From assembly GCF_044324875.1 (NCBI RefSeq), contig NZ_CP172185.1: a stretch of DNA of 64,000 nucleotides. One strand, given 5' to 3'. Under the pieces are notes generated by a model. The model saw nothing but the letters and a program-made list of their open reading frames with translations, had not been told where the DNA came from and made no database searches. Shown here in pieces: positions 1,889 through 48,925 of the stretch. The translations under genes were made by a program, and so were the position numbers. The first letter of the stretch is position 1; the number at the start of each line of letters is the position of its first letter. Source of the DNA: Escherichia coli (GTDB taxonomy: Bacteria; Pseudomonadota; Gammaproteobacteria; Enterobacterales; Enterobacteriaceae).

Positions 1889-2779
1889 TCAGGCTGCCAG
1901 ATCATCGTTTCCGATGGAAGCATAATAAGCTTTTTCTGCTTCTGCCGGTGGGATATGGCCCAGCCTTTCCAGCAATCGTCGATTGTTATACCAGTCCACC
2001 CACGTGAGTGTGGCCAGCTCCACTTCTGTCCGGTTTTTCCAGCTCTTACGGTGTATTACCTCCGCTTTGTAAAGGCCATTGATGCTCTCCGCCATCGCGT
2101 TGTCATACGAGTCACCAGTACTTCCTGTTGATGCCAGTAATCCGGCTTCCTTAAGCCGCTGTGTGTAGGCCAGCGATACATACTGAGAACCTTTATCACT
2201 GTGATGGACTGTGCCGGACGGTCGACGGGCCCATAACGCCTGCTCCAGAGCATCCAGCACGAATGTCGTTTCCATAGACGATGAGACCCGCCACCCCACG
2301 ATGTATCCGGCAAACACATCAATGATGAACGCCACATAGACGACCCCCTGCCATGTGCTGACGTAAGTAAAATCAGCCACCCACAACTGGTCAGGACGTT
2401 CTGCCACAAACTGACGGTTTACGCGGTCGCCTGCGGCAACGGCTTTCCGGCTGACGGTAGTGCGGACCTTTTTACCCCGGAGAACACCGGCAAGTCCCAT
2501 AACCGCCATGAGGCGCGCCACTGTACATCTGGCTACCCTGATTCCTTCCCGTAACAACTGACGCCAGACTTTACGCACACCGTATACCTGATGATTCCCA
2601 TCGTATACGCGCAGTATCTCTTTCTTCAGCCAGTCATCGCGCTGCGCACGGGCACTGCGTTTATCCGGATGATGTCGCTGTTGCTGACAGTGGTAATACG
2701 TTGACGGGGCAATATGTAGTTCACTGCATACCGGTCCGACCCCGTACAGCTTACGCAGCTTATCCAGCAGTGGCATCAC
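1889..2779 (-). CDS. IS629 OrfB (DDE transposase catalytic subunit)
   Basis: 296 aa rve-domain ORF with IS3-family DDE motifs. Confidence 0.9.
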
Positions 2780-3102
2780 TTTTTCCAGAGGCGGTCGAAC
2801 TCCGCCTTCGCAAAATAAGCGGAAGCCTGGCGAAGGATATCGTTACTGCGGCGCAGTTCACGATTTTCACGTTCCAGCTCTTTCAGACGCTGACGTTCAG
2901 CGGTGGTGAGCCCGCCATCACCGCCTCCGGTATCCCGCTCATGCTGGCGTACCCAGACACGCAGAGTCTCCGGTGTACAGCCAATCTTTGGGGCAATGGA
3001 ACAAATTGCCGCCCACTGTGAGTCATATTCGCCCTGACTTTCCAGAACCATACGAATCGCCCTCTGACGGACTTCGGGGGAAAAACGAGTATTTTTAGTC
3101 AT
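2776..3102 (-). CDS. IS629 OrfA (HTH transposase subunit)
   Basis: 108 aa [19 protein letters not shown]...; overlaps OrfB as in IS3-family programmed -1 frameshift organisation. Confidence 0.9.
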
Positions 3103-3622
3103 TCTGTTTACCTCTTTCTCAGGGAGTTTAGTCTCCAGGATTCCCGGGGCGGTTCATTGTGTTTAAAGATGGCTCCAACGGACATAAATCGCTGTTTATG
3201 GGTTATGCGACCCCGAAAGCATTTTATGAAGCCCTGAAAGAGGCAGGTGGTACACCGGGCGAAAACATGACGATGGATAATAAAGAAACGACTCATGTCA
3301 CAGGCAGCAAACTGGATATTTCGGTCAACTGGCAAGGGGCGGCAAAAGCGTATTCCTTCGATGAAGTGATTGTTGACAGTAATGGCAAGAAACTGGACAT
3401 GCGCTTTGGCGGTAATTTAACGGCAGCAGAAGAGAAGAAAACGGGCTGCCTGGTGTGTCTGGATAGCTGCCCGGTCGGCATCGTCAGCAATGCAACATAC
3501 ACTTATGGTGCGGTTGAAAAACGAGGTGAAGTTAAATTCAAAGGCAATGCCTCGGTTCTCCCGGCGGATAACACGCTGGCAACGGTTACCTTTAAAATCA
3601 CCGAATAAAGCCAGGATAAAGA

Positions 3623-4878: not shown

Positions 4879-5065
4879 GGAGGGTACTACCTTCACTTCT
4901 ACCTCTGCCTCCCAAACTCCGTAAAACTCATGCACAATCACCATATTACAGTCAACCCGAACATTATGAGCTCCACTGAATTCTACTGTTCACCCCCTAA
5001 ATCAAGCATAAAATGGGGGCATATTTGGGGGCCCATTGTGTTCAGTCAGTTTCAGGAGCCCCCAT

Positions 5066-6253
5066 ATGGCACTTACAGCCAGACAAGTCGAAACAGCCAA
5101 ACCTAAAGACAAAGATTATAAACTCTCTGATGAACGTGGTTTATATCTGCTGGTAAAAACCACGGGAGCACGCTACTGGCGCTTTAAGTACAGGATAGCA
5201 GGAAAGGAGAAAAAACTGTCCTTCGGTGTCTATCCTGACGTCTCCCTTGCAGAAGCCAGAACCAAACGCGACGATGCAAGGAAAATTATCTCCGAGGGCG
5301 GTGATCCCGGTGAAAAGAAACGAAGGGAAAAACTCTCACAGAAAATCTCTGTCACCAACACCTTCCATGCTCTCGCAATCGAATGGCATCATCATAAATC
5401 TTTATCATGGTCTGACAGTTACGCCAGAAGCGTACTGGAAGCTCTGGATAAAGACGTTTTCCCGTATCTGAGCAACCGGAGCGTTACTGATATCCTTCCA
5501 CTGGAAATGCTGGAAATACTACGTCGAATTGAAAAACGAGGCTCTCTGGAAAAACTACGCAAGGTCCGGCAATACTGCAATCAGATTTTCCGTTATGCCA
5601 TAGCCACAGGACGAGCCACTGTCAATCCAGCCTCAGAACTGAGCAGCACGCTGGCGGCACCAAAAACCGCACATTTTCCCCATCTGAGAGCGGATGAACT
5701 TCCTGTTTTTCTCCGGAAGCTCGCTGACTATCACGGCAGTCCTGTCACTCGTATGGCTACAAACCTGCTGATTCTGACCGGGCTCAGAACGATTGAATTG
5801 CGACTGGCCGAATGGTCAGAAATTGATTCTAGCAACGCACTCTGGCATATCCCTAGAGAGAGAATGAAAATGCGCCGGCCTCATATTGTTCCTCTGTCAC
5901 GCCAGGTCATTTCTGTTCTGCAGGAATTACATGGTTTTACCGGACAGTATCGCCTTATGCTACCCGGACGTTGCGATGTAAACAAACCTATGAGTGAAGG
6001 CTGCATCAATATGGTGCTCAAACGTATCGGTTACGATGGCAGGGCAACCGGTCATGGTTTTCGTCACACCATGAGTACCATTCTGCACGAACAGGGCTTT
6101 AATTCTGCCTGGATTGAAATGCAGTTAGCTCATGTGGATAAAAACTCCATCAGGGGTACCTATAATCATGCACATTATCTCGATGGTCGCCGTAAAATGA
6201 TGCAGTGGTACGCTGATTACATTGATTCTCTTATGGGAAAAACGCACAAATGA
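5066..6253 (+). CDS. Tyrosine recombinase, P4-type island integrase
   Basis: ORF 5036..6253; likely start MALTARQVETAKPKDKDYKL at 5066 with AGGAG 8 nt upstream; P4-integrase N-terminal signature and C-terminal catalytic region (HGFRHT...Y). Confidence 0.85.
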   Translation: MALTARQVETAKPKDKDYKLSDERGLYLLVKTTGARYWRFKYRIAGKEKKLSFGVYPDVSLAEARTKRDDARKIISEGGDPGEKKRREKLSQKISVTNTFHALAIEWHHHKSLSWSDSYARSVLEALDKDVFPYLSNRSVTDILPLEMLEILRRIEKRGSLEKLRKVRQYCNQIFRYAIATGRATVNPASELSSTLAAPKTAHFPHLRADELPVFLRKLADYHGSPVTRMATNLLILTGLRTIELRLAEWSEIDSSNALWHIPRERMKMRRPHIVPLSRQVISVLQELHGFTGQYRLMLPGRCDVNKPMSEGCINMVLKRIGYDGRATGHGFRHTMSTILHEQGFNSAWIEMQLAHVDKNSIRGTYNHAHYLDGRRKMMQWYADYIDSLMGKTHK

Positions 6254-8401: not shown

Positions 8402-9417
8402 TCCCCCCTGATAAAAATATTAAAGTTCAGCGGATGTTACTGTCCGCCAGTTATTTTTTGCGAGCCACTCTATCTGTTCACAAAATATTTCAGGTGAAAG
8501 TGTCACAAGCCCCGGACAGCGACTGACATGATGGTACATCAGTACGGGAAGATGTCTTGCATTCAACATAAAGCATTATCACCAGTTAGTTATACAGTAA
8601 ATATACCCCGAGTAAAAACAGGGCGGTTTAGGATATGTCTGGCTCCGGGTATTCTACTATGTAATCAGGGAATAATGGACAATGAGAATACAACAGACAC
8701 TTTTAATATTTCCGACTGTTTATCAAAATAATTTTATCCTTTGTGAATATATTGTTTTTATCAGATGATTTACTTATTTTCCAGGAAAATAAAATCCTTC
8801 GATTTCAGGACACTCAGAGGAATATACCTGCTTCCGTCAAAAATCATAAAAACCGTGTCCCGATTAGTTTTAGCAGCAGGATCAAATGCAGTAATATAAT
8901 GATCTTATACCAGTAAGCCACTGGGAAATGCCCTCAAAATGTCGTGCACTGATTTTTCGGTTGAGAGCCTCATAATACCTAATATTACTGGCCGTAATAA
9001 TCCGGAGGCACAGCATAGCTTTCTTGTACAGAGGCATCATGATGAACAGGATTAATACCGTCACAGATGCACAAGTTTTACCCGTGATAAAGAATCCCGT
9101 TTTGTCCGCACTTGCCTGCGCCAGCGTTGAAAACGTGCCGGTTATTGTAGTTAAGTTATTGCCGCTAACTTTTTCACAACCCACCTATCCGGATATTTCC
9201 TTATTCTTCATATATTACATCTCATAAATTTAAATGTGAGTTTCTCATGGGTAAAATAAATTATACGAATCGCATCAATAGGAAAGACAGACGGTGCTGC
9301 CGATATAAAACGGGAAGTGACGGGATAAGCAGTTATGTGAATATTGTTTCAAAAAATGATATTTTGTGTTGTTAAAGTATAACTTTGCAATAAGCTATCC
9401 ATGATGGGATTCTGTAA

Positions 9418-9771
9418 ATGAACAAAACACTCTCTTCAATTCTGCTCATCTTCGGTATCTGTGCATCATCACTGGCTGCTGATAAAAAAGAACCGTCAGT
9501 TTTCCACGATGTGAAGGGCAGGAAGCATCGGCTGTTTCAGCCAGCGTCAAACGGAACTATCTCCAGAAACAGGTGCTTCACAGGAAAGATGACTAGGTGC
9601 TCCTCAGTCAGCAGCGTCCTGTTGTCTGGGTGAATCTTCGTGAGCTGGTAAGTAAAGGTGATAATTTAGTCACAGCGCATCTCACCGCCAGGGGGAATAA
9701 AGCCGATATTCAGTATCGGGTGCGCATTGACTGTAAGAACGAAAACGCTATCTGGCAGCGCCAGGGATGAA
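9418..9771 (+). pseudogene. Small signal-peptide protein, broken by frameshifts and an in-frame amber codon
   Basis: ORF 9418..9633 has an N-terminal signal peptide; the continuation ...VNLRELVSKGDNLVTAHLTARGNKADIQYR.../...VRIDCKNENAIWQRQG lies in other frames; family not recognised. Confidence 0.3.
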
Positions 9772-10267
9772 CGCTTGAAGATAACCACAGAGTATGAACA
9801 AACGGACTCTACATGTTCATTATGACTAAAAAAACGCTGCACGTTCTCTGTTTTATTTTACGTTGCTGTCATAACGTGTTTACCTCAATTTTCGGGAACG
9901 TGTTCTTAGCGCTTAGACTACCCCTGAATCTTCTGCTGTTGAAGGGCCGTAACAGGGTAAGTGATAACAGATGTCTGGACATATAGGAGCAAATTCACCG
10001 ATTTACTTAATCATGATGTTATTTTGTAAAATAAGCTGAGGGGAGTTTCACATAATGTTAGTTTTTGTGTAAACGCAAGAAGGAAAATCAATAAAATTAA
10101 TATATAGTTATATGTTGTAGGTGTGAGTATGACTGTTTGGCCGTGGAGTGCATTCCTAAATTAGGATTGGATCATTTAAGGTTTAACACATTATTAAATA
10201 CGGCAAATTACAGTAAAATACTTTGCCGTATTTAGAAATAAAATTAAATTTTTCTATAGAATATTAT

Positions 10268-11689: not shown

Positions 11690-11989
11690 AACATATTCGA
11701 TGACGGACAGGCGACAATGTGGTTATCTGTGCTGGCGTTTGGCAGACAGGCCGAAGCACTGGCCAGACACCAGAAAGGCGAACTGGTAAGCGTGGCAGGT
11801 AACATGCAGGTCAGCCAGTGGACAGGGCAGAACGGGAAAACGCGGCAGGGACGGCAGGTTATCGCAGACAGCGTAATCAGTACTCAAACGGTGCGGCCAG
11901 GAGGAAGCAGACGCGAAACCACAGGTACACAGGGTAATCAGCCACCAACGGGAGGCGACGCCACTTACGGAGATGATATACCCTTATGA
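11690..11989 (+). pseudogene. Single-stranded DNA-binding protein, C-terminal fragment only
   Basis: ...MWLSVLAFGRQAEALARHQKGELVSVAGNMQVSQWTGQNGKTRQG...DDIPL parallels the SSB C-terminal half including the acidic DDIPF-like tail; no N-terminal OB-fold part. Confidence 0.5.
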
Positions 11990-12006
11990 ATTAAGCGGGG
12001 CGCAAC

Positions 12007-12327
12007 ATGAACAACAGCACACTGAAGAGCCGGACAATAAGCGACGCGACAGCGGAAGAACTCGAGAGCAGGGGACTGTGGCGACGTGCTGCCAGAAGGT
12101 GGCAGGATGTGATGATTACTCTTGAGAAAGACAGTCACAGACAGCTTGCAGTAATGAGAGCAAGGGAATGTATCAGGAAGGCAAAACGCCCGATACCTGA
12201 AAGCCGTATTGATATTCATACAGTCAGAAAGGCCGCAGACAGGACAATACAAAAAATGGGGCTACCGTCGCTTACTGATGAAATATGGCGCGATTACCCT
12301 GATAGCGTTAACGATGACGGTTATTAA
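12007..12327 (+). CDS. PerC-family transcriptional activator
   Basis: 106 aa; motif AEELESRGLWRRAARRWQDVM typical of PerC/Pch proteins; later KMGLP motif. Confidence 0.55.
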   Translation: MNNSTLKSRTISDATAEELESRGLWRRAARRWQDVMITLEKDSHRQLAVMRARECIRKAKRPIPESRIDIHTVRKAADRTIQKMGLPSLTDEIWRDYPDSVNDDGY

Positions 12328-12610
12328 CTGGCGGGGGAAACACGATACCAGCGGGCGTGACTCGGGAGAATATATACCGCTGGTGGAACATTACCAGCCC
12401 TGATGGCTGGTGGCGTGCGTTACGACCTGAAAGACCATCCATGCGGGAAGGTGACACAGGAGCACCTGGCGAACGCGGGGAAGCGACTGGATGAGATTAA
12501 GAAAAAACAGCAGGAGCGCAGAAAAAGTAACCGTCTCATTAAAACGTCTTTCGCCTCCCTTTCCTGTTTCCTATGCTAATGTCCATTTTCGCAGTAAAAG
12601 GACATTTACG

Positions 12611-15552: not shown

Positions 15553-15822
15553 AAAAACACAGGCTAACCGCGCCTGCGTTTTTAATGACGGATGAAACAG
15601 AATCAGGTGCCGATTATGCCGCCGTCGGCTTTTACGATAACGACAGTTGAGGAGCGCGGACGACCAGCCTTATCGCCGTCAGGCCAGCTTGATACTGCCG
15701 TCGGATGCTGCGGATCGCTAAGCTGCGTATTCCGCTCTATTCGATCACGGATTGGCATCGAAGTCCGATCAGCGATTCGCATCCATTCGATCAACCGGGA
15801 ACTTAACTTTTTCTACCGCTTT

Positions 15823-16578
15823 TTAACGCGTTTTTTCGCTGCTTTCCACTACCGGGGGATTTTTCCTCAGTGACTCTCCCTGAAGGACCACTCGGTGTGA
15901 GTTATGTACCAGTCTGTCCAGGATGGCATCTGCTGTTGTTGGGTTCTCCATCAGACCATGCCATTTATCTACCGGGAACTGGCTTACCACTATCGTGCTG
16001 CTTTGTCCGTAACGATCCTCTATGAGCTCCAGAAGGTCATTACACTGGGCGTTACTTAACTGTTCCAGCCCCAGATCGTCCAGGATTAGAACCTGTATTT
16101 TTTGCAACTGTTTCAGATATTTCAGCCAGCTGCCATCAACACGTCCCTGAGCCAGTTGTTCCAGTAATCGCCCGGTTCTACAGTACCGGACGCTGTGTTT
16201 CTGTCGACATGCCTGTTCGCCCAGCGCATTGGCTATCCAGCTCTTGCCACATCCTGTCGGACCGGTTATCAGCAGGTTTTTCCTGTGGGTTATGTAGTGG
16301 CCGTTCAGCAGTTCTCTCATCTGTTCAGCCCGCAGACCTCTTGAGGCCGGATAGCGCAGCCCTTCCGGTGTTGCCTGGTATTTCAGGCCGGCATTTTTTC
16401 TCAACCGTGCCACACGGCTGTTTTCCCTGCTCAGAAGCTCGTCATCAACCAGCAGCGTCAGCCTTTCCTCGAACGACAGTTCGTCGTAGGTCTGAGGCGT
16501 TTCCCGCTGCCGTATCAGGCTCCCGGCCATCGCCGGGAGTTTCAGTTGGGTCAGTTTGTTTAACAGGTTATCACTCAT
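15823..16578 (-). CDS. IstB-like ATPase of the IS21-family element
   Basis: Walker A GPTGCGKS; likely start MSDNLLNKL at 16578 with AAGGAA RBS. Confidence 0.8.
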   Translation of the reverse strand: MSDNLLNKLTQLKLPAMAGSLIRQRETPQTYDELSFEERLTLLVDDELLSRENSRVARLRKNAGLKYQATPEGLRYPASRGLRAEQMRELLNGHYITHRKNLLITGPTGCGKSWIANALGEQACRQKHSVRYCRTGRLLEQLAQGRVDGSWLKYLKQLQKIQVLILDDLGLEQLSNAQCNDLLELIEDRYGQSSTIVVSQFPVDKWHGLMENPTTADAILDRLVHNSHRVVLQGESLRKNPPVVESSEKTR

Positions 16579-16594
16579 ACTGTTGTTCCTTCTG

Positions 16595-18130
16595 TCAGTG
16601 GTAGTAGCCCGGACCACGCAGGTTTTCATGCTCTGAAGCATATGCCGGATGTTGTTCGCCCTGGCGGGATAATGGAAGCTCCAGGTTCTCCCGATGGTGA
16701 CGCAGCAGATTGTCGATAAAGCGTCTGTCAGGGGCGTTATAGTGCAGGGCAACGTAACAGGCCTTTTCCAGCCGTTCCGGGCCGTATTTTTTCTGAAGTG
16801 CCAGCAGCCCCAGAACTGCACGATAAGCCAGTTCCGGATGGGGTTTTGCCTTCAGCATGGATTCAACCACCCGGCCTGTGGACGGGCCCGTACGTTTTCC
16901 CTGCTCGATCAGGCGTTCCGGTGTCCATGTCCCGTGCTGCCGGTGGCGCTCTGGCATGTGAAGCGGATTGGTTGTGTGTTTATATTCATGTGTGCTGCGC
17001 GGATGTTGCGCCACACACTGCCCCTTGTGCCAGAGCTGTACCACCGACTGCCCCGCCTTCAGTGACAGACGCTGACCGACCAGTTCGTGTGGAACGGAGT
17101 ACCAGTGACGGGCATATTCAACGTGGTAGTCAGGGCCAACCTTCACAGCTTTGTATTCCGTGTATTCATAAGGTGCCAGAGGCAGCGGAGAGAGTGCTGG
17201 CGCATCCAGTATGCGGAAGCGTTCTGCACGGGTTTGATTGCCGTACCCCTTCATTGGCCGGTTATTCATGTCTGTCAGTAACTCCCTAAGGCGCGCATTC
17301 AGCGCCCTGAGCGTGTGGAAGGTTTCATTACGGATGCGGGCAAGAAGCCATCGTTCAACGATGAGGACGCCGTTTTCTGCTTTTGGTTTATCTTTAGGTT
17401 TGCGTGGTCGGGCCGGGATGATAACCGTGCCATAGTGCTCAGCCAGTGCCTGATAACTGTCGTTGATGACAGGCTCATATCGATCGGCCTTTTTCACTGC
17501 GCTTCTGAGGTTATCGGGGATGAGCAGCTTCGGTACGCCGCCCAGGAAGGTCAGGCAACGGCTGTGGGCATTTAACCATGACATCATGTCCTGACCTTCG
17601 CACGCTTCAACGTAGGTATAGTTGGACGCCCCCATTACGGCCACGAAGATTGCCACGCGGCGTATCTCACCGGTGTCCGGATTAATAACAGGAACCGTAG
17701 GACCACAGAAGTCGATAAAAAGCTTTTCGCCGGCACGATGCTCCTGGCGCATGGAGAGACGTCGCGTTTTTTTCCACTCCCGGTAGCAACGGCAGAAGTG
17801 CGAGTATCCCATCGCTTTGTTACCCGCCTGTGCCTTGTATTCCATCCACAACAGTTGCCGCGTCACACCTGGTTTTCTCATTTCCGTATCGAAGTACAAC
17901 ATGTCAGGCATTACAAGCTCTGATGCAAAGGTGTCTTTGGGCGGAAAAATGAGTTTCTCCAGCGTGTCATGGGATATATCAGCAGGTAATGGCCATGACA
18001 GAGAAGAGGCTTTGAAGCGGGCAAGAACCTCAAAAACGGTTGAGGCGCTGATGTGTAACGTCAGTCCGATACAACGGTTAGTCAGCTTCTTGTCGAACTT
18101 GAGCTGAAGGATCTTAAAACAGGTTTCCAT
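16595..18130 (-). CDS. IstA-like DDE transposase of the IS21-family element
   Basis: 548 aa ORF; likely start METCFKILQ at 18130 with AGGAG RBS; N-terminal HTH and rve core. Confidence 0.8.
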   Translation of the reverse strand: METCFKILQLKFDKKLTNRCIGLTLHISASTVFEVLARFKASSLSWPLPADISHDTLEKLIFPPKDTFASELVMPDMLYFDTEMRKPGVTRQLLWMEYKAQAGNKAMGYSHFCRCYREWKKTRRLSMRQEHRAGEKLFIDFCGPTVPVINPDTGEIRRVAIFVAVMGASNYTYVEACEGQDMMSWLNAHSRCLTFLGGVPKLLIPDNLRSAVKKADRYEPVINDSYQALAEHYGTVIIPARPRKPKDKPKAENGVLIVERWLLARIRNETFHTLRALNARLRELLTDMNNRPMKGYGNQTRAERFRILDAPALSPLPLAPYEYTEYKAVKVGPDYHVEYARHWYSVPHELVGQRLSLKAGQSVVQLWHKGQCVAQHPRSTHEYKHTTNPLHMPERHRQHGTWTPERLIEQGKRTGPSTGRVVESMLKAKPHPELAYRAVLGLLALQKKYGPERLEKACYVALHYNAPDRRFIDNLLRHHRENLELPLSRQGEQHPAYASEHENLRGPGYYH

Positions 18131-18241
18131 AGTGCTCCTGGATTTTCTCTTTCTGGACATTGACGTCTCCACTGGTTTAAACACGGCAATGGAGACTGTG
18201 GTGAAAAGAGTTAATTCCCGGAGTGACTGGCAGGATGCCAA

Positions 18242-18365
18242 TCAATGATCGGAAGCATGCCAAATCGTGATCGATTGTGATGCCAAACTGTGATCGGAGA
18301 TGGATGCCAAATCATGATCGATTCGAATGCCAAACTGCGATCGATTCAGATGCCATTTTGCACTA
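18242..18365. repeat. Five tandem ~23-bp direct repeats (ATGCCAAAYYRTGATCGRWKNNN), terminal repeats of the IS21-family element
   Basis: Seen directly; inverted versions lie at the other IS end. Confidence 0.6.
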
Positions 18366-23245: not shown

Positions 23246-23611
23246 TTAAGTTAACGTTATCCGCTGACGTCGATATTCCCGTGGTGAGAGATAACCTAAC
23301 GCACTATGCGGATGGTTTTCATTGTAATGCTCGAACGCCTCTGCAAGGTTATGCAATGCCGTTATTACATTCGGTTTCGGTATGAACGCAATGTAGTCTT
23401 CCTTCATCGTTTTCACTAACCTTTCTGCCATTCTATTGCTCTGAGGGCTACTGACTGCCGTCGTGCAGGGCTCCAGATTCAACTCTCTGGCGAATTGCCG
23501 TGTTTCATGAGCCGTATAAGCCGAACCGTTATCCGTCCGCCACTGGATTGCTCGTTCCGGTCCTTTATCGCCAAAGCGTTTTTCTATCGCTCCTAACATC
23601 ACATCCTGCAC
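23246..23611 (-). pseudogene. IS3-family (IS2-like) OrfB C-terminal fragment
   Basis: ...[18 protein letters not shown]...[14 protein letters not shown] motif. Confidence 0.55.
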
Positions 23612-24375
23612 TGTCGGCTTTATCGTAACCTCCCGTACTGGTCACGGGCAGACTGTTCATCATGTTAAACCCAGCCGCTGTCAGATCATGCACCGGCCGG
23701 ATGGCGGGCTGACCTGCCCCGCCGCGCTGCTGCCCGCCAATCCATTTCTTACCTTCCTTCCCGGTGGCCTGACGTCCGGCCTCGTCCCCTTTCACCGCAT
23801 CACCGTCACCGCTGTTCACCACCTTCTTGTACTCTTCCAGCATCGCTGGCCTGCGTCCATTTGCTGCGATCAGAAAAGTCCATCATCCGTTTTGCCATGT
23901 TCTGGCAGTTCAGTTACGCCTTGTCGAAAGCCACATTCGCCTGCAGCACACCGTTGGTGATCATGTCGTACAGGCCGGGGTTGGCACGCTGTATCACCAT
24001 CGCCGGCAGACTGGCAGCGGCGCCGGTCGCCCCCTGAATCACATCCCCCATCAGATTTTTAAAGCCGTCGGTCAATCCGTTAAGATGATTACCCACCGTG
24101 GTCTTCAGGTCAAAGTTGCCGCACATCAGATCGCTGCTCCAGCCCAGGTCCATACCCAGCTTCTGCATGTTGCTGCGCGTGGCCAACTGTGAGATCACCG
24201 AGCCGCCACCCAGCGTATAGAACAGTTTGTCGGATACGGCGCCATCCACGGATTTCCCGTAACCGAACGTGCTGTCATTCAGTTTCGGCAGGGAAAGAAG
24301 ATCAGCCATCGCCGGAATACTGCAGTACAGCATCACACTCAGTGCCACCATACCTGTTTTCATCTTCATCATCAT
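23565..24375 (-). pseudogene. Conjugative-transfer (ICE-type T4SS) TraH-like protein, truncated/frameshifted
   Basis: Signal peptide plus conserved body in ORF 23914..24375; C-terminal part in another frame (ORF 23565..23843); family call from memory, weak. Confidence 0.35.
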
Positions 24376-24381
24376 GGTTCC

Positions 24382-24780
24382 TTAAAAATTCGTACTGCCA
24401 AGGAATCGCTGCCCGCGCTTTTCGAAGCAGCTGTAAGGCTGCCACAGTGCAAAGGCTGCATTACCGTTCTCCGCCGCCTGGTGTTCACCATCCGGGAAAA
24501 CGGCACAGGAACGCGACACTGACGGCGTCAGTCGCTGCCATTTGTGATTGCGGGTGCCGGTGTTTTCCTCCACCGCCTCCGGGGGCCAGTAGCCGTCACG
24601 TTTCACGCCCTTAACCTCCCTGTAGACATGCGACTCCCCCATCCGCGTGATAATGTCGGCCACCCGCTGAGCCCCCACCGCCGCGGCCCGGTCATCATCG
24701 CTCTGCATCACAAAACCACTCCGGTGATAAACGCTCCCCCACATGTTTTTATCGGCCTAGCTGCCAATCTCGCGTTTGCC
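24382..24780 (-). pseudogene. ICE-associated protein with in-frame amber codon near the 5' end
   Basis: ORF 24382..24744 extends upstream in frame across a TAG at about 24758. Confidence 0.3.
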
Positions 24781-24825
24781 GGGAACCTGTGCCTCTGGAT
24801 ACAGGGATTCAGGTAATCCCGTTCG

Positions 24826-25356
24826 CTAGACGATGCTGTCCAGGGTACTGAGGAAATAGGCCATGGCCGGTGTCACCGGTGAATCACAGCTGAATCCGGG
24901 TACCATCCCGCCGATAAGCTGTGTGGCCGGATGACCCAGCGCATCTGCGTATTTGAAACGAATTGCTGAACGGCGCTTCCCCTGTATTTTCATATCCGCC
25001 GGATTTCCCCCGCCGGCACTCAGCCCGGACAGGCCGTCAGTGATGGCATTCTCCGGGCCACCTGCGGTCCGGCTGACCAGCGACATCTCTTTCCAGGGAT
25101 TACCACCCGGTGCCGTATAGGTGGAAATAACCACTTCCGGGATGAAATGTGTCACCTTCACGGAAATTCTGACCGTACAGCCAGACGCGCTGCAGTAAAG
25201 CCAGTAACAAATCCCGCTGACACGCCAGCTGATATAGTCCGGTGCCGCAGTACTGGCGATAATGCTGGCGGTGTTCAGTGATACAGACGCCAGGGGCAGT
25301 GATGCCACACTCAGTAACAGCACGCCGGTACGCAGACTACATTTCAGGGACATCAT
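24826..25356 (-). CDS. Conjugative-transfer TraU-like protein
   Basis: 176 aa; signal peptide; Cys-rich motif GICYWLYCSASGC; weak family call. Confidence 0.35.
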   Translation of the reverse strand: MMSLKCSLRTGVLLLSVASLPLASVSLNTASIIASTAAPDYISWRVSGICYWLYCSASGCTVRISVKVTHFIPEVVISTYTAPGGNPWKEMSLVSRTAGGPENAITDGLSGLSAGGGNPADMKIQGKRRSAIRFKYADALGHPATQLIGGMVPGFSCDSPVTPAMAYFLSTLDSIV

Positions 25357-25748
25357 GGCTGCACTCCTCCCTCAGCACGGATTTTCCCGGCCATCACCAC
25401 ATCCATAGTGCCGTAAACCACCTCACTGTCATCAAACACCACGGCAGGGTATTTCTTCACGCCCAGCGACTAGGCATGTGCCACATCGCGGTAATGACCG
25501 GCCAGTTCCGCCTGCATCGTCTGCCATTCGGGAGACTTCATACGTACCCTGACCACCGATTCAGCCTCACCCGCATCAGCAGGCAACAGGCCCCAAAAGC
25601 GGCTCTGAAGCTGCTCAGGCGCATCCAGCAGAACCACCCTGACACCATCAGGAGGATTAACGGGAAGATGCTGAGAATCGGTATAAATTGTTGTGCCGGC
25701 AGACGCTGCCAGCGGCAGGAAAAACAGGGAACAGAAAATCCGGTACAT
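25330..25748 (-). pseudogene. ICE-associated periplasmic protein with in-frame amber codon
   Basis: ORF 25470..25748 continues in frame after a TAG (...RDVAHA*SLGVKKYPAVVFDD...). Confidence 0.4.
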
Positions 25749-25943
25749 CGTACACCTCAGTCAGATATTATCTGACTGACAGCGTGCGAAGAAAGCGCTC
25801 ATTTATCAGCAATAAATTAAAAACGGGATTAAAAAATTACGGTGGGATCCGGGGAAGTGTATCTGCCAAGCATAACAGACAGTCTGTGATTATACCCGGC
25901 CTTTCACAAAGCCGGGGAACTGATTCATACCAAGTGGTGATTT

Positions 25944-26195
25944 TCAACAATAAGTATAATGAGGTTGTCCCGGCACCGGTGGCAGTGGTTCGAGATAGAC
26001 GTCATCAACAAAAACACAGGGGAATTTTTCAACTGCACATCCAGCACGCTCAGACATTACCTTCAGACTGATACCATGTTTCTCAGCATCAATAAAGAGG
26101 ACATCTGCCCCTGTTTCATCCCGGAGATTTGTCGCATGATGCATGATCCGGTGTACTGAAGGACATGTTTTGTAACCAAAAACACATATACGCAT
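25944..26195 (-). CDS. Small glutaredoxin/thioredoxin-fold-like protein
   Basis: Internal start MRICVFGYKTCP...; weak. Confidence 0.3.
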   Translation of the reverse strand: MRICVFGYKTCPSVHRIMHHATNLRDETGADVLFIDAEKHGISLKVMSERAGCAVEKFPCVFVDDVYLEPLPPVPGQPHYTYC

Positions 26196-26681
26196 GTTGC
26201 ACCTCCTGATCACTGGTTGACGCCGATAATAAAACAATAATGTGAGCGTAAAAAATGCACCTCATACCACATTTCTGTAAAAGGCTCTGGCTATCACTGC
26301 AAAAAGCAAAATCTTAATTCCAGCATCACTTGTTACTCTCATTCCGTCACTTATATTTACCCACATGGCGATGTATTTAATTACTGCCCATAAGAATAAA
26401 AGCCGCTGGCGGATTATTTCTTTATTACCCGGATGCGGTCACAAGCCCACACATCGTCAACTACCTGCCGGTAATATTAACTGTCAGAAGAACGCATACA
26501 TCCGGATGTTTACAGAGTCGCGCGCCTGGTCACAGGTGACAACAGAAGTATGCCATACTAAAGGAGTAAACGGCGGGTCACTGGTGATCAAACACCTGCA
26601 TCGTGTGTTGCTGCCACTGCCCTCAGGTGACAGAGGCAGCATCTTTACGTATTATAATGCGTTATATCGGGTTTGTTGTTA

Positions 26682-28769
26682 TCAGAACTGATAGTTCAGC
26701 GACATCCAGTAATTTCTCTCAGGTATCACATAACCCGTTGTCGATGCCCCCGTCTGGAAGTAATCACCCGCATAAAGCGTACCACTGCCGGCACGATACA
26801 GACTTACGTCACTGTAATCCTTGTTAAGCACATTATTCACCGCTGCATTCAGCATCAGTGCATCCGTCACTTTCCACGACATGCCCGCATCCAGTACCGT
26901 CCAGGCTTTCAGATATTCACCTTTCTCATCATACACTTTCTTCTGTACAGCTGAGAGTGACGAATAATTCTGGGTGAAACGTGGCGTTTTCCCGCGGTAA
27001 CGGGCACCCAGCCATGATGTCACCTCTTCAGTAATCTGCCAGTTCAGTTTCGCATTCACCATATGCTCAGGGGTGTAACTCAGTGGTGCACCTTTATTAT
27101 CCCCATCCCGTTGTTCACTCTGCGTCCAGGTATAATTCAGAGACAGAGTCACATCCTCTGACAACAGAGGCAGTGTGCCGGCAAATTCCACGCCCTGAGT
27201 CCTAGCCTTTCCGCTGTTTGTGTAGCTGCGGGTATTATCATCAATGGAATAAGATACGATCTTGTTGGAGAATTCTGTCATAAAGCCCGTGATATTGGCG
27301 TTCAGACCGGCATGATTATCGTAATACACGCCCGCTTCATAACTGACACTCTCCTCCGGCTTCAGGTCCGGGTTACCGAGAAGATTCGTACGCCCCTGAC
27401 CGGACACACCGCTGATCCCCTTATGTAACTGCCCCATGCTGGGCGCCTTATATCCCGTGGTCACCCCACCTTTCAGCGTCCACGCATCAGTCACATCCCA
27501 GACCATATATGCCCGGGGACTGAAGTGTCCTCCGAACACCTCATAGCGTTCATAGCGGCTACCCGCAGTCAGTGCAAATGCATCCGTGATATACCACTCA
27601 TCCTCAACAAATGCCGACCAGCTTTTCTGACGGAAGGTTTCACCAGTACTGGCGAGAACAACCCCGTCTTTCATGGAGGAGTTCTGATACTCACCACCGA
27701 CGGTAACCTTGTGTGATTCCCCCAGAGGTGCAAACAGTAATGAGCTCAGGATAAGATTCGACTCCTTAAGCTCCCTCGGCTGGCCGGCAAGCCCCCATTT
27801 ATCACGCTGCAGTACGCTACGTACAAGCTGACGGCCTTTATTTTCCGTCTCATTCCAGTTCAGGGATGACTTCCAGGCTCCGAAGGTGAATGTATGATCA
27901 TAGCCTGCTGAAATTTTATTACGCTCATAGCGCAGGGTGCGATCATAACCGCCCGTCAGACTGCCCAGCTGGCCATCTCGGTTATCATAACGCTGCCGGG
28001 CGATATCCATATCAATCCAGAGTACATCCTTGTCCGTCGCTTTCCAGTCAAGACGACCACCTGCATTATAATTCTGTGATTCCGTGGGATAAGGGATACG
28101 CGTAGCTGAGGTGTCGCTCAGTGATGTGACCGATGAGCCCTGACGCTGCTGTGTGCTGCCACGTACCTGAAGGCTGAGTGAATCATCCACAAGGGGACCG
28201 CTGCTCCAGAAATTAAACTGGCTGCTGTTCCCCCATTTGTTACTTTCCTGCAGGTTCAGCCCGGCATTAACCGAAGAGCGCCATTTGTCTGCATTCTTTT
28301 TGGTGATGATATTCACCACGCCCCCCATGGCATCAGAGCCGTACAGAGTGGACATGGGGCCCCTGATAATCTCAATACGTTCGATGGCGGCCAGAGGTGG
28401 CATAAAACCCGTATTCATGGCAGCATAACCGTTTGGGGTTACGTCACTGCTCCCGCCCTGACGGACACCATCGATCAGTATCAGCGTATAACTGGCAGGC
28501 ATTCCGCGGATGCTGATTTCCAGCCCACCTGTTTTACCCGTACCGCTTTCAACATCCACCCCCTCTACGGATCTCAGTGCCTCCCCCAGATCATGATACT
28601 GGCTGGATCGCAAATCCTCCTGGCTGATCACTGAAACACTCGCAGCTGCACTGGTTAATTTTTTTTCATAGCCAGACGCCGTGACTACCATCACATCTTC
28701 CGCAGCCATACTGCTGACTGAAAACCCGAGACAAGGGATGGCTACTGAAGCCAGAGTGGTTACTCGCAT
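26682..28769 (-). CDS. iha: TonB-dependent outer-membrane siderophore receptor/adhesin Iha (IrgA homologue)
   Basis: 695 aa; signal peptide; TonB-box/plug then beta-barrel ending ...YWMSLNYQF; closely matches Iha as recalled. Confidence 0.8.
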   Translation of the reverse strand: MRVTTLASVAIPCLGFSVSSMAAEDVMVVTASGYEKKLTSAAASVSVISQEDLRSSQYHDLGEALRSVEGVDVESGTGKTGGLEISIRGMPASYTLILIDGVRQGGSSDVTPNGYAAMNTGFMPPLAAIERIEIIRGPMSTLYGSDAMGGVVNIITKKNADKWRSSVNAGLNLQESNKWGNSSQFNFWSSGPLVDDSLSLQVRGSTQQRQGSSVTSLSDTSATRIPYPTESQNYNAGGRLDWKATDKDVLWIDMDIARQRYDNRDGQLGSLTGGYDRTLRYERNKISAGYDHTFTFGAWKSSLNWNETENKGRQLVRSVLQRDKWGLAGQPRELKESNLILSSLLFAPLGESHKVTVGGEYQNSSMKDGVVLASTGETFRQKSWSAFVEDEWYITDAFALTAGSRYERYEVFGGHFSPRAYMVWDVTDAWTLKGGVTTGYKAPSMGQLHKGISGVSGQGRTNLLGNPDLKPEESVSYEAGVYYDNHAGLNANITGFMTEFSNKIVSYSIDDNTRSYTNSGKARTQGVEFAGTLPLLSEDVTLSLNYTWTQSEQRDGDNKGAPLSYTPEHMVNAKLNWQITEEVTSWLGARYRGKTPRFTQNYSSLSAVQKKVYDEKGEYLKAWTVLDAGMSWKVTDALMLNAAVNNVLNKDYSDVSLYRAGSGTLYAGDYFQTGASTTGYVIPERNYWMSLNYQF

Positions 28770-28817
28770 ATCTTCTCTCCGATTATATTAATCAGAGAGA
28801 AGATAAACAAACGCAAG

Positions 28818-28834
28818 AGATAATGAGAATGATT
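28818..28834 (-). promoter_or_regulatory. Candidate Fur box upstream of iha (GATAATGAGAATGATTT)
   Basis: Close match to the Fur consensus about 50 bp upstream of the iha start. Confidence 0.4.
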
Positions 28835-29093
28835 TGCTTTTGGTTTTTACATAAAAAAGTAAAAAATTACAAAATATTACATAAGGTTCTACTATACCCC
28901 GAATTTCAGTTGAGGACGTTCTTTTCTCTAGGGGAAAGTAACGGATAGCAATCGTTGACGATCCATATCGGATTTTTGCACTATGGGTATTTATCCAATC
29001 TTTATCAGTTTCTTGTCCTTGGATATGTTAATCATACACTATCGGATATTTCGTACATCAGACAGGTGAATATAATTAATAATGAGGAGTTTT

Positions 29094-33750: not shown

Positions 33751-34178
33751 TTTTTGATTAATGGTGGGCTTGCTTAAATCTATCCGGCGTCTCTGTGGAC
33801 AAGGAGACCCGCGCCTCGATGAGTTCCGCACCTGATAATCCTAAAAAGACCCTCGGCTTCAGTGAGCCATTTTTTCTGTCAGGTTTTTAATCAGGTCTAT
33901 TTGCCGTTCATGTCATCAATAATCAGTCTTCGCAAAACCAGACAGGTAACTTGTATCTTATTTTTTAAAATAAGCTAATTGAGTTTTGTCAGTATCTATA
34001 TCAGGCCTGATATTCTTTGTGCAGAGCAGTGATTGCCCAGGCTATTCGGGCCAGTTTATTTGCCAGAGCGCAGGCGACAATATTTGAATGCTTATTGTCG
34101 AGTTGCTTTTGAACCCATTCAGCAACTCTGCCCTATTGAACCGCCCCGGGTTTCCTGGAGAGTGTTTTATCTGTGAAC

Positions 34179-35069
34179 TCAGGCTGCCAGATCATCGTTT
34201 CCGATGGAAGCATAATAAGATTTTTCTGCTTCTGCCGGTGGGATATGGCCCAGCCTTTCCAGCAATCGTCGATTGTTATACCAGTCCACCCACGTGAGTG
34301 TGGCCAGCTCCACTTCTGTCCGGTTTTTCCAGCTCTTACGGTGTATTACCTCCGCTTTGTAAAGGCCATTGATGCTCTCCGCCATCGCGTTGTCATACGA
34401 GTCACCAGTACTTCCTGTTGATGCCAGTAATCCGGCTTCCTTAAGCCGCTGTGTGTAGGCCAGCGATACATACTGAGAACCTTTATCACTGTGATGGACT
34501 GTGCCGGACGGTCGACGGGCCCATAACGCCTGCTCCAGAGCATCCAGCACGAATGTCGTTTCCATAGACGATGAGACCCGCCACCCCACGATGTATCCGG
34601 CAAACACATCAATGATGAACGCCACATAGACGACCCCCTCCCATGTGCTGACGTAAGTAAAATCAGCCACCCACAACTGGTCAGGACGTTCTGCCACAAA
34701 CTGACGGTTTACGCGGTCGCCTGCGGCAACGGCTTTCCGGCTGACGGTAGTGCGGACCTTTTTACCCCGGAGAACACCGGCAAGTCCCATAACCGCCATG
34801 AGGCGCGCCACTGTACATCTGGCTACCCTGATTCCTTCCCGTAACAACTGACGCCAGACTTTACGCACACCGTATACCTGATGATTCCCATCGTATACGC
34901 GCAGTATCTCTTTCTTCAGCCAGTCATCGCGCTGCGCACGGGCACTGCGTTTATCCGGATGATGTCGCTGTTGCTGACAGTGGTAATACGTTGACGGGGC
35001 AATATGTAGTTCACTGCATACCGGTCCGACCCCGTACAGCTTACGCAGCTTATCCAGCAGTGGCATCAC
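34179..35069 (-). CDS. IS629 OrfB
   Basis: Identical to copy 1 OrfB except for one residue (Q/E). Confidence 0.9.
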
Positions 35070-35392
35070 TTTTTCCAGAGGCGGTCGAACTCCGCCTTCG
35101 CAAAATAAGCGGAAGCCTGGCGAAGGATATCGTTACTGCGGCGCAGTTCACGATTTTCACGTTCCAGCTCTTTCAGACGCTGACGTTCAGCGGTGGTGAG
35201 CCCGCCATCACCGCCTCCGGTATCCCGCTCATGCTGGCGTACCCAGACACGCAGAGTCTCCGGTGTACAGCCAATCTTTGGGGCAATGGAACAAATTGCC
35301 GCCCACTGTGAGTCATATTCGCCCTGACTTTCCAGAACCATACGAATCGCCCTCTGACGGACTTCGGGGGAAAAACGAGTATTTTTAGTCAT
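35066..35392 (-). CDS. IS629 OrfA
   Basis: Identical to copy 1 OrfA except for one residue. Confidence 0.9.
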
Positions 35393-36351
35393 TCTGTTTA
35401 CCTCTTTCTCAGGGAGTTTAGTCTCCAGGATTCCCGGGGCGGTTCACTATTGATGCTCCAGCCGCATCATGAACGAGCGGGCGTACAGAACAAGTAACCG
35501 ACTCGTTTGCTGATCCCCAGCAGCATTGATTTACCACCGGTACTGTATTGTCGGGGAACAAGTCCTGTGGATGCTGCAAAATCCCTACTGCACGAAAATT
35601 GTTTACCATCACCAAGCTGGGATGATAGCAGGCTGGCCGTCATCGGCCCAACACCGGGGATTGTCATGATTCGTTGCACAGTAGCGTCAGCTTTGATTGA
35701 CTGGTTTAACTCTGATTCCAGTTCTGTTATTTGCTCAATACGATAAAGATAGTGAGCATGTAATTTCATCAGCAAGCGACTCAGATATTCAGGTATTTCG
35801 TGTTCAGCTAACGCCAGAGATAACCATTTTATTGCGGCATCCCCTGTCGGCAGTCTGATTCCAAATTCCAGCAAGAAACCGTGGATCTGGTTGTTTTTTT
35901 TCACCTTATCTCTGATGAGCGATTCTCTGACCCGATGTAATGCCCTCATTGCCTGCTGGGTTTCTGTTCTGGGCTGGACAAAACGCATTGATGGTCGTGA
36001 AGCCGCTTTGCATATGGCTTCTGCATCAATAAAATCATTCTTATTACCTTTGACAAACGGACGCACGAATTACGGAGAGATAAGTTTTTCTTCATGACCG
36101 ATGTCGCTGATACGCCGGGCCATAAAATGCGTACCAGCGCAGGCTTCCATAACAACTACTGAGGATGGACATGTTGCCAGAAACTGCATCAGCTTCGTAC
36201 GCGTAAACTTTTTACGCAAAAGCGCATTGCCAGATTTATCTTGACAATGAATATGGAAAGAATGTTTACCGAGATCGATACCAATAAGCGCAACGTTTTA
36301 CATGATGGTGCCCTCTAAAATAACCCACCCTGTCAGCGTACCGCTCACAGG

Positions 36352-46645: not shown

Positions 46646-48039
46646 GCTCATTCAAAACCCATTGCACACAGTTATGCCGGAGCGGGGCTTCTGGCCCATG
46701 TTGTCACCGGAAAGTATGCAGACCATCTGCCGTTATACCGTCAGTCAGAAATATACCGCAGTCAGGACGTGGAGCTGACACCGTTGCTGAACTGCTGGAG
46801 CCGCTGTATGACGTCCTGCGCCAGTATGTGCTGATGCCCGGTAAAGTCCATGCTGATGATATCCCCGTTCCGGTCCAGGAGCCAGGCAGTGGTAAAAACC
46901 GAACGGACAGGCTGTGGGTCTACGTCCGTGATGACCGTAATGCCGGGTCGGAGATGCCCCCGGCGGTCTGGTTCGCGTACAGTCAGGACCGGAAAGGTAT
47001 CCATCCACAGAATCATCTGGCCGGTTACAGCGGTGTGCTTCAGGCCGATACTTACGGTGGTTACCGGGCGTTATACGAATCCGGCAGAATAACGGAAGCC
47101 GCGTGTATGGCCCATGCCCGGAGGAAAATCCACGATTTGCATGCAAGAGCGCCAACTGACATCACCACGGAAGCCCTGCAGCGTATCGGTGAACTGTATG
47201 CCATCGAGGCAGAAGTCCGGGGATGTACAGCAGAACAGCGTCTGGCGGCAAGAAAAGCCAGAGCTGCGCCACTGATGCAGTCACTGTATGACTGGATACA
47301 GACCCAGATGAAAACACTGTCGCGTCACTCGGATACGGTAAAAGCGTTCGCCTACCTGCTGAAACAGTGGGATAGCCTGAACGTGTACTGCAGTAATGGC
47401 TGGGTGGAAATCGACAACAACATCGCAGAGAACGCCTTACGGGGAGTGGACGTAGGCCGGAAAAACTGGTTGTTCGCGGGTTCCGACAGCGGTGGCGAAC
47501 ATGCGGCGGTGTTGTACTCGCTGATCGGCACATGCCGTCTGAACAATGTTGAACCAGAAAAATGGCTGCGTTACGTCATTGAGCATATCCAGGACTGGCC
47601 GACAAACCGGGTACGCGATCTGTTGCCCTGGAAAGTTGATCTGAGCTCTCAGTAAATATCAATACGGTTCTGGCGAACCGCTTACTGTTCAATGGTCCAT
47701 TGGGGTTTTGACATCAATTATCTCCGGTAAGTTAGTGAATGGATATCGGTAATGCTAACTGACTAAAAATCCCTGTGAAGATGACTTCCCCGTAACGACA
47801 TAAACAAAGCGAACACCCGGACGAAATACTATTTCACAAATTGTTAGGGCATCATTTATGAGCAGCGTTTTAATCGAGTAGTCTTTACTTGCATTGCTGC
47901 CTTTATTCTCAGGTGTTCTCATGTCCAAGATGCTCTGTGAGTTCAGCGCTAAGCTCATCTTTAACAGTACACTTCGTAAGCATGGGTGATGCTGCCAACT
48001 TACTGATTTAGTGTATGATGGTGTTTTTGAGGTGCTCCA

Positions 48040-48737: not shown

Positions 48738-48925
48738 GTTGGAGTCATTACCGTAAGCATGTATAAAAACAGGTTAAGATCAGATTCGGTTTTAAGGCAA
48801 TTTACCAGTTCGGCAGCAATAGCATTGGATTCTTGTTTATCAATTGCCTGTCTCCACGGTGTAGGGAACATATCAAAAACAGGCAATTACAAAATTTAAA
48901 TTACACTCTCGTCAGAACATAGCCC

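Follow-up and report, generated by a model that had tools for sequence, protein, structure and literature searches.

Three broken conjugation genes lie beside an intact iha gene in a genomic island of E. coli, and the locus raises the question of whether they mark the whole island as a decayed integrative conjugative element (ICE) or arrived there as a fragment. The window, by which we mean the whole 64-kb stretch of DNA that was analysed, carries on its minus strand, at 23633-25748, three mating-pair-formation genes of the type found in SPI-7/pKLC102/ICEclc-type (MPF_G) ICEs. We consider it very probable that three adjacent genes of such an ICE persist at 23633-25839 as a non-functional relic, and that this relic belongs to a slice of about 5.3 kb, iha included, within a mosaic island. 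The features concerned are these.

23246..23639, minus strand: C-terminal fragment of an IS3-family (IS2-group) transposase, from NCBIfam and Pfam matches
23633..24372, minus strand: truncated ICE gene of the TIGR03755 family, codons 1-246 of 472, from HMM match and nucleotide alignment
24382..25356, minus strand: full-length TIGR03756/TraU-like (IceU-like) pseudogene, 324 codons, from HMM match and alignment
25353..25748, minus strand: full-length TIGR03757/DUF1525 (thioredoxin-like) pseudogene, 131 codons, from HMM match and alignment
25749..25839, minus strand: conserved intergenic stretch of the ICE, upstream of the TIGR03757 gene, from homology to ICEs
25840..26608, minus strand: lineage-restricted 769-bp slot segment with a glutaredoxin-like ORF, absent from the compared ICEs
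26609..28883, minus strand: iha module, 93.5% identical in nucleotides to its counterpart in the MS15052 ICE

The preliminary description of this DNA had taken the block for inactivated ICE-type conjugation remnants lying in one orientation, and in this it was right: the family HMM matches are strong and the gene order is kept. The ICE T4SS families TIGR03755, TIGR03756 and TIGR03757 were all matched, so that homology to conjugation families holds, and the block shares with intact ICEs both its gene order and 95% nucleotide identity. The count of four conjugation genes, however, was too high; three genes, broken into pieces, account for the five ICE-type ORFs.

For the middle gene, the ORFs 24826-25356 and 24382-24744 match TIGR03756 (E values of 1.8e-47 and 5.1e-46), and the same two pieces pass the Pfam TraU model PF06834, a likeness to TraU of the F plasmid (MPF_F), at 60 and 72.3 bits (cut-off 26.5). 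With its stops masked, the gene reaches 371.6 bits (cut-off 188.35), within the family, and the call of a TraU-like protein is borne out by both models. ORF 25470-25748 likewise matches TIGR03757 and Pfam DUF1525 (PF07511; 51.3 bits, cut-off 24.1), and the stop-masked gene belongs to TIGR03757 at 115.2 bits (cut-off 73.2). The third gene is represented by ORF 23914-24375, which has a signal-peptide-like N terminus and matches TIGR03755 over profile positions 1-106 of 419 (E 3.6e-47, 161.1 bits), and by ORF 23565-23843, matching positions 135-205 (E 5.7e-22, 78.1 bits). The cut-off of 270.45 for this family (PFL_4711-type integrating conjugative element protein) applies to the whole protein, of which only positions 1-205 of 419 survive. 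Judged by its sequence, the sub-cut-off fragment nevertheless appears to be a clear TIGR03755 orthologue, given that its nucleotides are 96.6% identical to those of the intact MS15052 ICE gene, a relative of which in the 2015C-3121 ICE scores 548 bits on TIGR03755.

The proposal that this last protein is TraH-like could not be confirmed, every test being weak or negative. Neither full-length TIGR03755 homologues nor 51 diverse members of the family matched Pfam TraH (PF06122) at E values up to 10, BLASTP against F-plasmid TraH was not significant, and a Foldseek search of the PDB with the AlphaFold model of TIGR03755 (pLDDT 75) returned nothing. With shallow and deeper profiles alike, hhalign was weak or negative (10.8% probability, E 0.0028, confined to a Cys-Gly-x-x-Asp region), and reciprocal hmmsearch gave scores of 5-9 bits. 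F-plasmid TraH (MPF_F) is close to TIGR03755 in length (457 and 472 aa), and the two have a TraG_N neighbour in common, directly adjoining TraH in F and one small ORF away from TIGR03755 in the ICE. According to a published profile comparison (PMC4027160), Tfc22 (MPF_G) is the sole TraH homologue outside MPF_F; in the literature consulted we found no link between Tfc22 and TIGR03755.

What lies next to the block points to how it came to be there. In intact E. coli ICEs of this family, the interval from the TIGR03757 gene to the operon of the VirB4-type ATPase is a variable cargo slot, which in some of them holds iha. Homology of the window to three of these ICEs stops at 25828-25839, the slot boundary, and picks up again at iha. 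Two more distant ICEs keep the same boundary, with other cargo in their slots. The intervening 769-bp segment is present in 59 of 5426 complete E. coli genomes and absent from all three intact ICEs compared; from the coincidence of boundaries we infer that it may once have lain in the slot of the ancestral ICE.

Within this segment, the glutaredoxin-like ORF runs from 25944 to 26195 if started at ATG and to 26237 if started at TTG. Against GrxA it scores 32.7 bits (cut-off 84) and 26.3 bits (cut-off 106.5), outside the family on both, and CPSV stands at the active-site position in place of CPYC; it has no Pfam hit. Thirteen homologues were found; wherever a source is named, they are hypothetical proteins of E. 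coli. Its relatives occupy non-ICE islands, in BON-Grx-DoxX-sitA and SSB...Grx arrangements (one metagenome contig, apparently chimeric, was left out of this comparison of contexts), and we reject the ORF as a conjugation gene. The glutaredoxin likeness noted in the preliminary description is a weak one.

The iha module beyond it is in a very different state from the transfer genes. The gene encodes an adhesin and iron receptor. Its CDS (26682-28769, 695 aa) is free of stops and indels and keeps about 115 bp of its own upstream region, it scores 1538.7 bits on NF010012 (cut-off 924), and comparison of the window with the intact ICE gives it a dN/dS of 0.14. A search around the block for repeats, promoters and terminators yielded a short palindrome upstream of iha; everything else stayed within what chance would give. 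Carriage of iha as cargo would explain the presence of an ICE slice here.

Whether the same slot is also where iha started out is a more speculative matter. Among complete genomes, 1589 are iha-positive and 245 have TIGR03755-57 genes. At this one slot, two ICE lineages with backbones about 0.9-1.0 apart in dS carry two iha alleles that differ by a dS of about 0.66, and an iha-less sister ICE exists in strain G8. One can envision, tentatively, that the ICE cargo slot was the ancestral home of the iha that spread into pathogenicity islands, and that the window is a fossil intermediate. The O157:H7 iha locus has 86 bp in common with the iha-less ICE, beginning exactly at the slot junction. We did not accept this "ICE scar" as proving a direction: more distant ICEs do not conserve the stretch, so that iha may just as well have been lost from the G8 lineage.

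Does the rest of the island descend from the same element? The preliminary description had the whole island begin as an ICE, with its integrase, SSB fragment and PerC-like regulator as parts. Six-frame and nucleotide comparison of the 64-kb window with two complete ICEs restricts ICE homology to 23633-25839 and 26609-28883, about 4.5 kb in total; outside 23633-28883, whole-window tblastx and blastn searches against these ICEs found IS copies only. All genes of the same two ICEs, used in tblastn and tblastx, revealed no VirB4/TraC_PFL_4706 ATPase, TraD or remaining TIGR037xx T4SS gene in the window, which is likewise devoid of homology to the ICE TraI or ICE integrase and of any ICE backbone on the iha-distal side of the slot. 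The island's own integrase (5066-6253) is P4-type, with an Arm-DNA-bind_3 domain, and the window contains no tRNA gene and no match, at up to 2 mismatches, to the tRNA-Phe 3′ end that serves as attachment sequence. With ICE homology limited to the block and iha, a foreign integrase and SSB, and no tRNA-Phe site, these findings argue that the slice travelled with iha and that the island is not a decayed ICE.

We propose that a slice of about 5.3 kb, made up of the 5′ half of the TIGR03755 gene, the TIGR03756 and TIGR03757 genes and the slot cargo (the glutaredoxin-like ORF and iha), joined a mosaic island with a P4-type integrase, most likely by IS-associated recombination or deletion. iha, with its own regulatory region still in place, would have been kept intact by purifying selection, and selection on iha may be the reason that the slice persisted. 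The transfer genes, useless without the rest of the secretion system, would then have decayed by nonsense transitions, a 1-bp insertion and a deletion that fused the TIGR03755 gene to the interior of an IS3-family element.

That last step can be examined at the left edge of the block. The segment 23246-23639 matches residues 172-289 of 301 of the NCBIfam IS2 TnpB model (E 1.5e-50; 172.5 bits, cut-off 597) as well as Pfam rve and rve_3, has about 89-92% nucleotide identity to ISEc48-like elements, and is labelled by PGAP in SCU-115 as [quoted passage not shown]. With a partial transposase below cut-off, it is an IS fragment and not a complete element. The TIGR03755 gene is cut after nt 739 of 1419 and joined at 23633 to an internal point of the IS, where there is no IS end; the 3′ 680 nt are gone. 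A junction inside the IS makes this a deletion joint. Thus an IS3/IS2-type fragment does abut the gene, as had been noted, but truncation by simple IS insertion does not fit the internal breakpoint.

Such joints bear on a variant of the proposed history, in which a complete iha-carrying ICE integrated in or beside the island and was trimmed there by successive IS-mediated deletions. Both ends of the slice adjoin IS debris or unrelated DNA, and the same genes have taken independent IS hits in related ICEs (IS21 in the TIGR03755 gene of FDN-4, IS66 in SMS-3-5), both of which would suit such trimming. The window, however, lacks the tRNA-Phe 3′ end that is the normal target of these ICEs, and 64 kb hold no second scrap of ICE backbone. 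We regard decay in place as possible but somewhat doubtful; it modifies our preferred history without contradicting it, and the data are compatible both with it and with import of a ready-made fragment.

Descent of the entire island from one immobilised ICE, including its integrase, SSB fragment, PerC-like regulator and transfer remnants, is improbable and largely refuted already. ICEs of this family do encode SSB, integrase and partition or replication genes, and the island's wealth of pseudogenes and IS debris makes heavy decay plausible. Nevertheless, beyond the missing attachment site and the short extent of ICE homology, the P4-type integrase has no meaningful similarity to the XerC/D-like integrase of the ICE, and the SSB fragment shares only 30% identity with the SSB of the ICE over 50 residues, with closer relatives, at about 80-89% nucleotide identity, in other chromosomal contexts and small plasmids. 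A smaller relative of the island, furthermore, has the same integrase type, YebF, the glutaredoxin-like gene and sitA and no ICE genes. The SSB-PerC-ProQ module was also considered as an ICE or plasmid leading region and set aside; the SSB piece alone has relatives, none of them diagnostic.

As for the captured slice itself, codon-by-codon mapping against the intact MS15052 ICE genes shows that all three transfer genes are inactivated: between them they have three amber codons and an ochre codon, one +1 frameshift and the 3′ truncation, so that the intact transfer-gene ORFs of a functional MPF_G ICE are lacking. TIGR03756 has W177 changed to TAG (24828-24826) and Q200 to TAG (24759-24757), TIGR03757 has W93 changed to TAG (25472-25470), and TIGR03755 has Q153 changed to TAA (23916-23914) and one nucleotide inserted near 23849. 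All four nonsense changes are GC-to-AT transitions. Two genes with in-frame amber codons and one cut at an IS2-like fragment had been described before, and correctly; the ochre codon and frameshift in the cut gene are additional. Identical lesions occur in SCU-115 and SMS-3-5, and since these genomes were sequenced independently, the lesions are not sequencing errors; SMS-3-5 has one further amber codon. Consistent with decay, the three genes show dN/dS of 0.24-0.61 when the window is compared with the intact ICE, and 0.04-0.16 when intact ICEs are compared with each other; the values derive from few differences per gene (10-20 nonsynonymous, 9-17 synonymous).

The block is now non-functional and unable to mediate transfer. 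That the interrupted genes still work, through amber suppression, read-through or split polypeptides, is extremely unlikely, for although three of the four nonsense codons are amber and two genes are otherwise full length, the TIGR03755 gene combines its ochre codon and frameshift with the loss of its 3′ half, all secretion-system partner proteins are absent, dN/dS is raised, and SMS-3-5 has gone on to acquire its extra amber codon. The pseudogenes are already annotated in RefSeq, for example in SMS-3-5, with PGAP labelling those of TIGR03756 and TIGR03757 "internal stop", and the locus is in this sense an ordinary, known relic.

Capture of the slice accounts for three dead conjugation genes beside iha in a lineage that makes up about 1% of complete E. 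coli genomes, and the dead genes identify an ICE cargo slot as the source of this divergent iha allele. The case also cautions that an integrase, SSB or regulator in a mosaic island need not belong to one former ICE. In surveillance, self-transmissibility should not be attributed to the island. Beyond correct annotation, its importance is slight.

The closest known system is the pheV ICE of MS15052 (NZ_CP082097.1, about 3314438-3392659), a 78-kb element of the SPI-7/pKLC102/ICEclc family (MPF_G), bounded by tRNA-Phe and a 50-bp repeat of the tRNA 3′ end. Its order is TraG_N, TIGR03755, TIGR03756, TIGR03757, an intact iha, VirB4 ATPase, the other TIGR037xx genes, TraD, pil operon, TraI and integrase; the stretch from TIGR03755 through TIGR03757 and the cargo slot to iha is the same in the window, with 95.0% nucleotide identity over 2196 bp of transfer genes. 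The MS15052 ICE is apparently complete and intact (T4SS, coupling protein, TraI and XerC/D-like integrase), whereas the window holds a relic, and its slot spacer is 385 bp without the glutaredoxin-like ORF, where the window has 769 bp with it. The ICE of 2015C-3121 has the same gene order with iha as a pseudogene, the related ICE of G8 has no iha, and more distant ICEs have other cargo in the same slot. In the tellurite-resistance/adherence island of O157:H7 (86-24 locus), iha has about 86% nucleotide identity, its neighbours are ter genes and transposase debris without TIGR03755-57 remnants, and likeness to the ICE slot is limited to the 86-bp stretch upstream.

By description, the window's slice also resembles two pheV-type E. 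coli ICEs that carry genes for conjugation and for type IV pili: ICEEc8 of STEC O117:H7, for which iha has been published as cargo (Montero et al. 2019, PMC6455142), and, as cited in PMC11537424, ICEEc2 (Roche et al. 2010). Both are whole mobile elements, whereas the window has a 5-kb relic in a P4-integrase island. ICEclc carries the same three families in the same order (Daveri et al. 2023, PMC10018362), flanked at one end by TraG_N and at the other by a variable stretch that precedes VirB4; the slot cargo there is radC and dsbA, not iha. All three ICEclc products have signal peptides and, unlike those of the window, the genes are functional: orf55476 (TIGR03755) and iceU/orf56883 (TraU-like) are essential for transfer, and orf57827 (DUF1525) is partly required (PMC10018362).

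Among a run of short ORFs on the minus strand of the window (23565-26237) is a dead relic of three transfer genes that accompanied iha. Five of these ORFs belong to three "integrating conjugative element" protein families of NCBIfam, and they lie between an IS fragment and iha:

23565-23843 and 23914-24375, minus strand, pieces of a TIGR03755 gene (NCBIfam E 5.7e-22 and 3.6e-47)
24382-24744 and 24826-25356, minus strand, pieces of a TIGR03756 (TraU-like) gene (NCBIfam E 5.1e-46 and 1.8e-47)
25470-25748, minus strand, piece of a TIGR03757 (DUF1525) gene (NCBIfam E 5.5e-17)
23246-23611, minus strand, ORF encoding the C-terminal portion of an IS3-family transposase of IS2 type (NCBIfam and Pfam)
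26682-28769, intact iha, the next gene rightward of the relic (NF010012, 1538.7 bits)

Pfam was concordant, the TraU model being passed by the TIGR03756 pieces and DUF1525 by the TIGR03757 piece. With internal stops masked, TIGR03756 and TIGR03757 scored 371.6 and 115.2 bits, both well over the curated cutoffs. The preliminary description had recognized inactivated conjugation remnants here, and the family matches and lesions bear this out, as does synteny: relic gene order is that of an ICE in E. coli MS15052, at 95.0% nucleotide identity. That 78-kb element, apparently intact, is bounded by tRNA-Phe on one side and by a 50-bp repeat of the tRNA 3′ end on the other. It encodes an XerC/D-like integrase, a TraI-domain relaxase and a type IV pilus operon; TraG_N, TIGR03755, TIGR03756, TIGR03757 and then iha; and a small ORF, a VirB4-type ATPase, the remaining TIGR037xx T4SS genes, TraD, PilL, SSB, topoisomerase III, an SPI-7-type DnaB, ParB and ParA. 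It is a typical ICE of the SPI-7/pKLC102/ICEclc family (MPF_G).

Lesions were mapped by codon-by-codon alignment to the intact genes of this closest ICE. TIGR03757 has a single amber (W93, TGG to TAG, 25472-25470) and TIGR03756 has two (W177, 24828-24826; Q200, 24759-24757). TIGR03755 has an ochre at Q153 (23916-23914) and a 1-nt insertion near 23849, and it ends after nucleotide 739 of 1419, at 23633. Since the IS fragment is contacted there at an internal point, this is a deletion joint and not simply the site of an IS insertion. GC-to-AT transitions account for all four nonsense codons. In the same alignment, iha has no stop codons or indels. The lesions are shared by E. coli SCU-115 and SMS-3-5, the latter with one further amber (Y256 in TIGR03756), and thus the damage is real, inherited and still accumulating. 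In the SMS-3-5 copy (L018, 1832-5939), a complete IS66 element sits between the TIGR03757 pseudogene and the segment with a glutaredoxin-like ORF. Separately, the MS15052-type ICE carried by E. coli FDN-4 (L019, 2018-6083) differs only in an IS21 element that interrupts its TIGR03755 gene, an independent and recent inactivation.

Consistent with relaxed constraint, the three transfer genes of the window gave dN/dS values of 0.24 to 0.61 against those of the intact ICE, compared to 0.04 to 0.16 among intact ICEs and 0.14 for iha, all from small counts. Transfer of ICEclc depends strictly on its homologues of TIGR03755 and the TraU-like protein, and in part on its DUF1525 protein (PMC10018362). 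Every partner is missing in the window, and therefore lesions in these genes cost the cell nothing.

How did the relic arrive? The suggestion that the whole island began as an ICE found no support. The island integrase (5066-6253, adjoining ynjA), a P4-type enzyme carrying an Arm-DNA-bind_3 domain, shows no meaningful resemblance to that of the ICE, and over 50 residues the SSB fragment (11717-11989) shares 30% identity with the ICE SSB. The window lacks tRNA genes as well as any copy of the tRNA-Phe 3′ end, and comparison of all of it with both complete ICEs (MS15052 and 2015C-3121; six-frame and nucleotide) found no homology beyond the relic and iha module except shared IS copies. Because the attachment site and any other ICE scrap are absent, import of a ready-made fragment is somewhat favored over in-place decay of a whole ICE.

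The window island seems to be an expanded form of a smaller one (L010, MOXV01000090.1), in which about 10 kb holds an integrase of the same type, YebF, BON, the glutaredoxin-like gene, DoxX and sitA, and no ICE genes. Compared with it (window segments 5036-6253, 9063-9900, 25940-26303 and 62560-64000), the window island is IS-riddled, rearranged and at least 58 kb long, with the glutaredoxin-like gene relocated and inverted. A fragment cluster at 11717-12579, unrelated to the ICE, comprises the SSB piece (90 aa, C-terminal part of the OB-fold), an intact 106-aa PerC-family ORF (Pfam E 5.9e-28) and the 58-aa C-terminal part of a ProQ/FinO protein. Five insertions in the window that the near-identical SCU-115 lacks (1849-3155, 15724-18362, 34140-35446, 47985-48751 and 57268-58035) point to ISs having been active recently in this strain. 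A 1.3-kb element accounts for two of them, one lying within ydjY, IS1 for another two and a 2.6-kb segment for the fifth.

The relic ends where ICEs vary. All ICEs compared share about 100 bp of sequence upstream of their TIGR03757 gene and then diverge at one point, which marks a cargo slot. The 2015C-3121 ICE, 79% identical, has the same gene order with iha a pseudogene; in its close relative in G8, which lacks iha, the small ORF and ATPase gene come straight after the TIGR03757 gene; in more distant ICEs the position is occupied by genes that include an AraC regulator and DUF1187. Within the window, homology to the ICEs breaks off at 25839, precisely the slot boundary, restarts at 26609 with the iha module and finally ends at 28883, ahead of any far-side backbone. 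Of note, the subtilase cytotoxin genes subAB lie near the iha-carrying 2015C-3121 ICE (L003, 6915-8397), a few kilobases from its integrase end; their neighborhood in this STEC strain includes a type I secretion/TolC locus and a sialic acid utilization cluster.

The 769-bp interval that separates iha from the slot boundary contains the glutaredoxin-like ORF, which has CPSV in place of the glutaredoxin CPYC, a weak match to GrxA (32.7 bits; cutoff, 84), no Pfam match and only 13 homologues in a collection of 5.8 billion proteins. A 69%-identical relative sits between the BON and DoxX genes, adjoining sitA, in the smaller island, and an 88%-identical one about 2 kb from an SSB fragment resembling that of the window. 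Given these contexts, the ORF belongs to the island or slot cargo and not to the conjugation machinery. An SSB piece about 2 kb from a glutaredoxin-like gene in contig L016 is 89% identical to the window piece.

The window iha is a divergent allele, about 95% identical in nucleotides to that of the MS15052 ICE and about 86% to the common O157/UPEC/Nissle allele; among 1589 iha-positive complete genomes, it occurs at 99% identity or more in only 59 and at 90 to 95% in about 20. A 17-nt palindrome (28769-28785/28789-28805, minus strand, 94% complementary) abuts its start codon. About 50 to 70 nt upstream of the ATG (region 28769-28840, minus strand) is a Fur-box-like sequence, GCAAATCATTCTCATTATC, in keeping with the Fur regulation reported for iha. 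In the tellurite/adherence island of O157:H7 86-24, 86 bp upstream of the iha gene (L014, 9327-9412) match the iha-less G8 ICE (L007, 14213-14298) at 74% identity (pairwise E 5e-12). The match begins exactly at the insertion point of the iha cassette in the 2015C-3121 ICE; in the window, the equivalent side ends at 28883. The match could be a scar that an ICE left on the common allele. Since two iha alleles occupy the same slot in diverged ICEs and this match falls at the slot junction, one can envision, tentatively, that iha spread from the slot, although we consider this doubtful; the 86-bp stretch is not conserved among the more distant ICEs compared, leaving the direction of transfer ambiguous.

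The TIGR03755 protein had also been called TraH-like, a label that stays tentative; the tests of it were weak. BLASTP against F TraH was not significant, hhalign gave 10.8% probability over a conserved Cys-Gly-x-x-Asp region, none of 51 diverse family members matched Pfam TraH, and an AlphaFold model (pLDDT 75) had no neighbors in the PDB. The two are similar in length (472 and 457 aa), and both neighbor TraG_N, directly in F and across one small ORF in the ICE. In a published profile comparison, Tfc22 (MPF_G) is the only F TraH homologue outside MPF_F (PMC4027160).

Pathogenicity islands with ICE remnants are commonplace. The relic stretch, found at 99 to 100% identity in 59 of 5426 complete E. 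coli genomes, is already annotated as pseudogenes in public records, SMS-3-5 included, RefSeq labeling TIGR03756 and TIGR03757 with internal stops. In ICEclc the slot holds radC and dsbA (PMC10018362), and iha as an ICE-borne gene was described in ICEEc8 (PMC6455142). The only mildly new angle is the possible spread of iha from the cargo slot.
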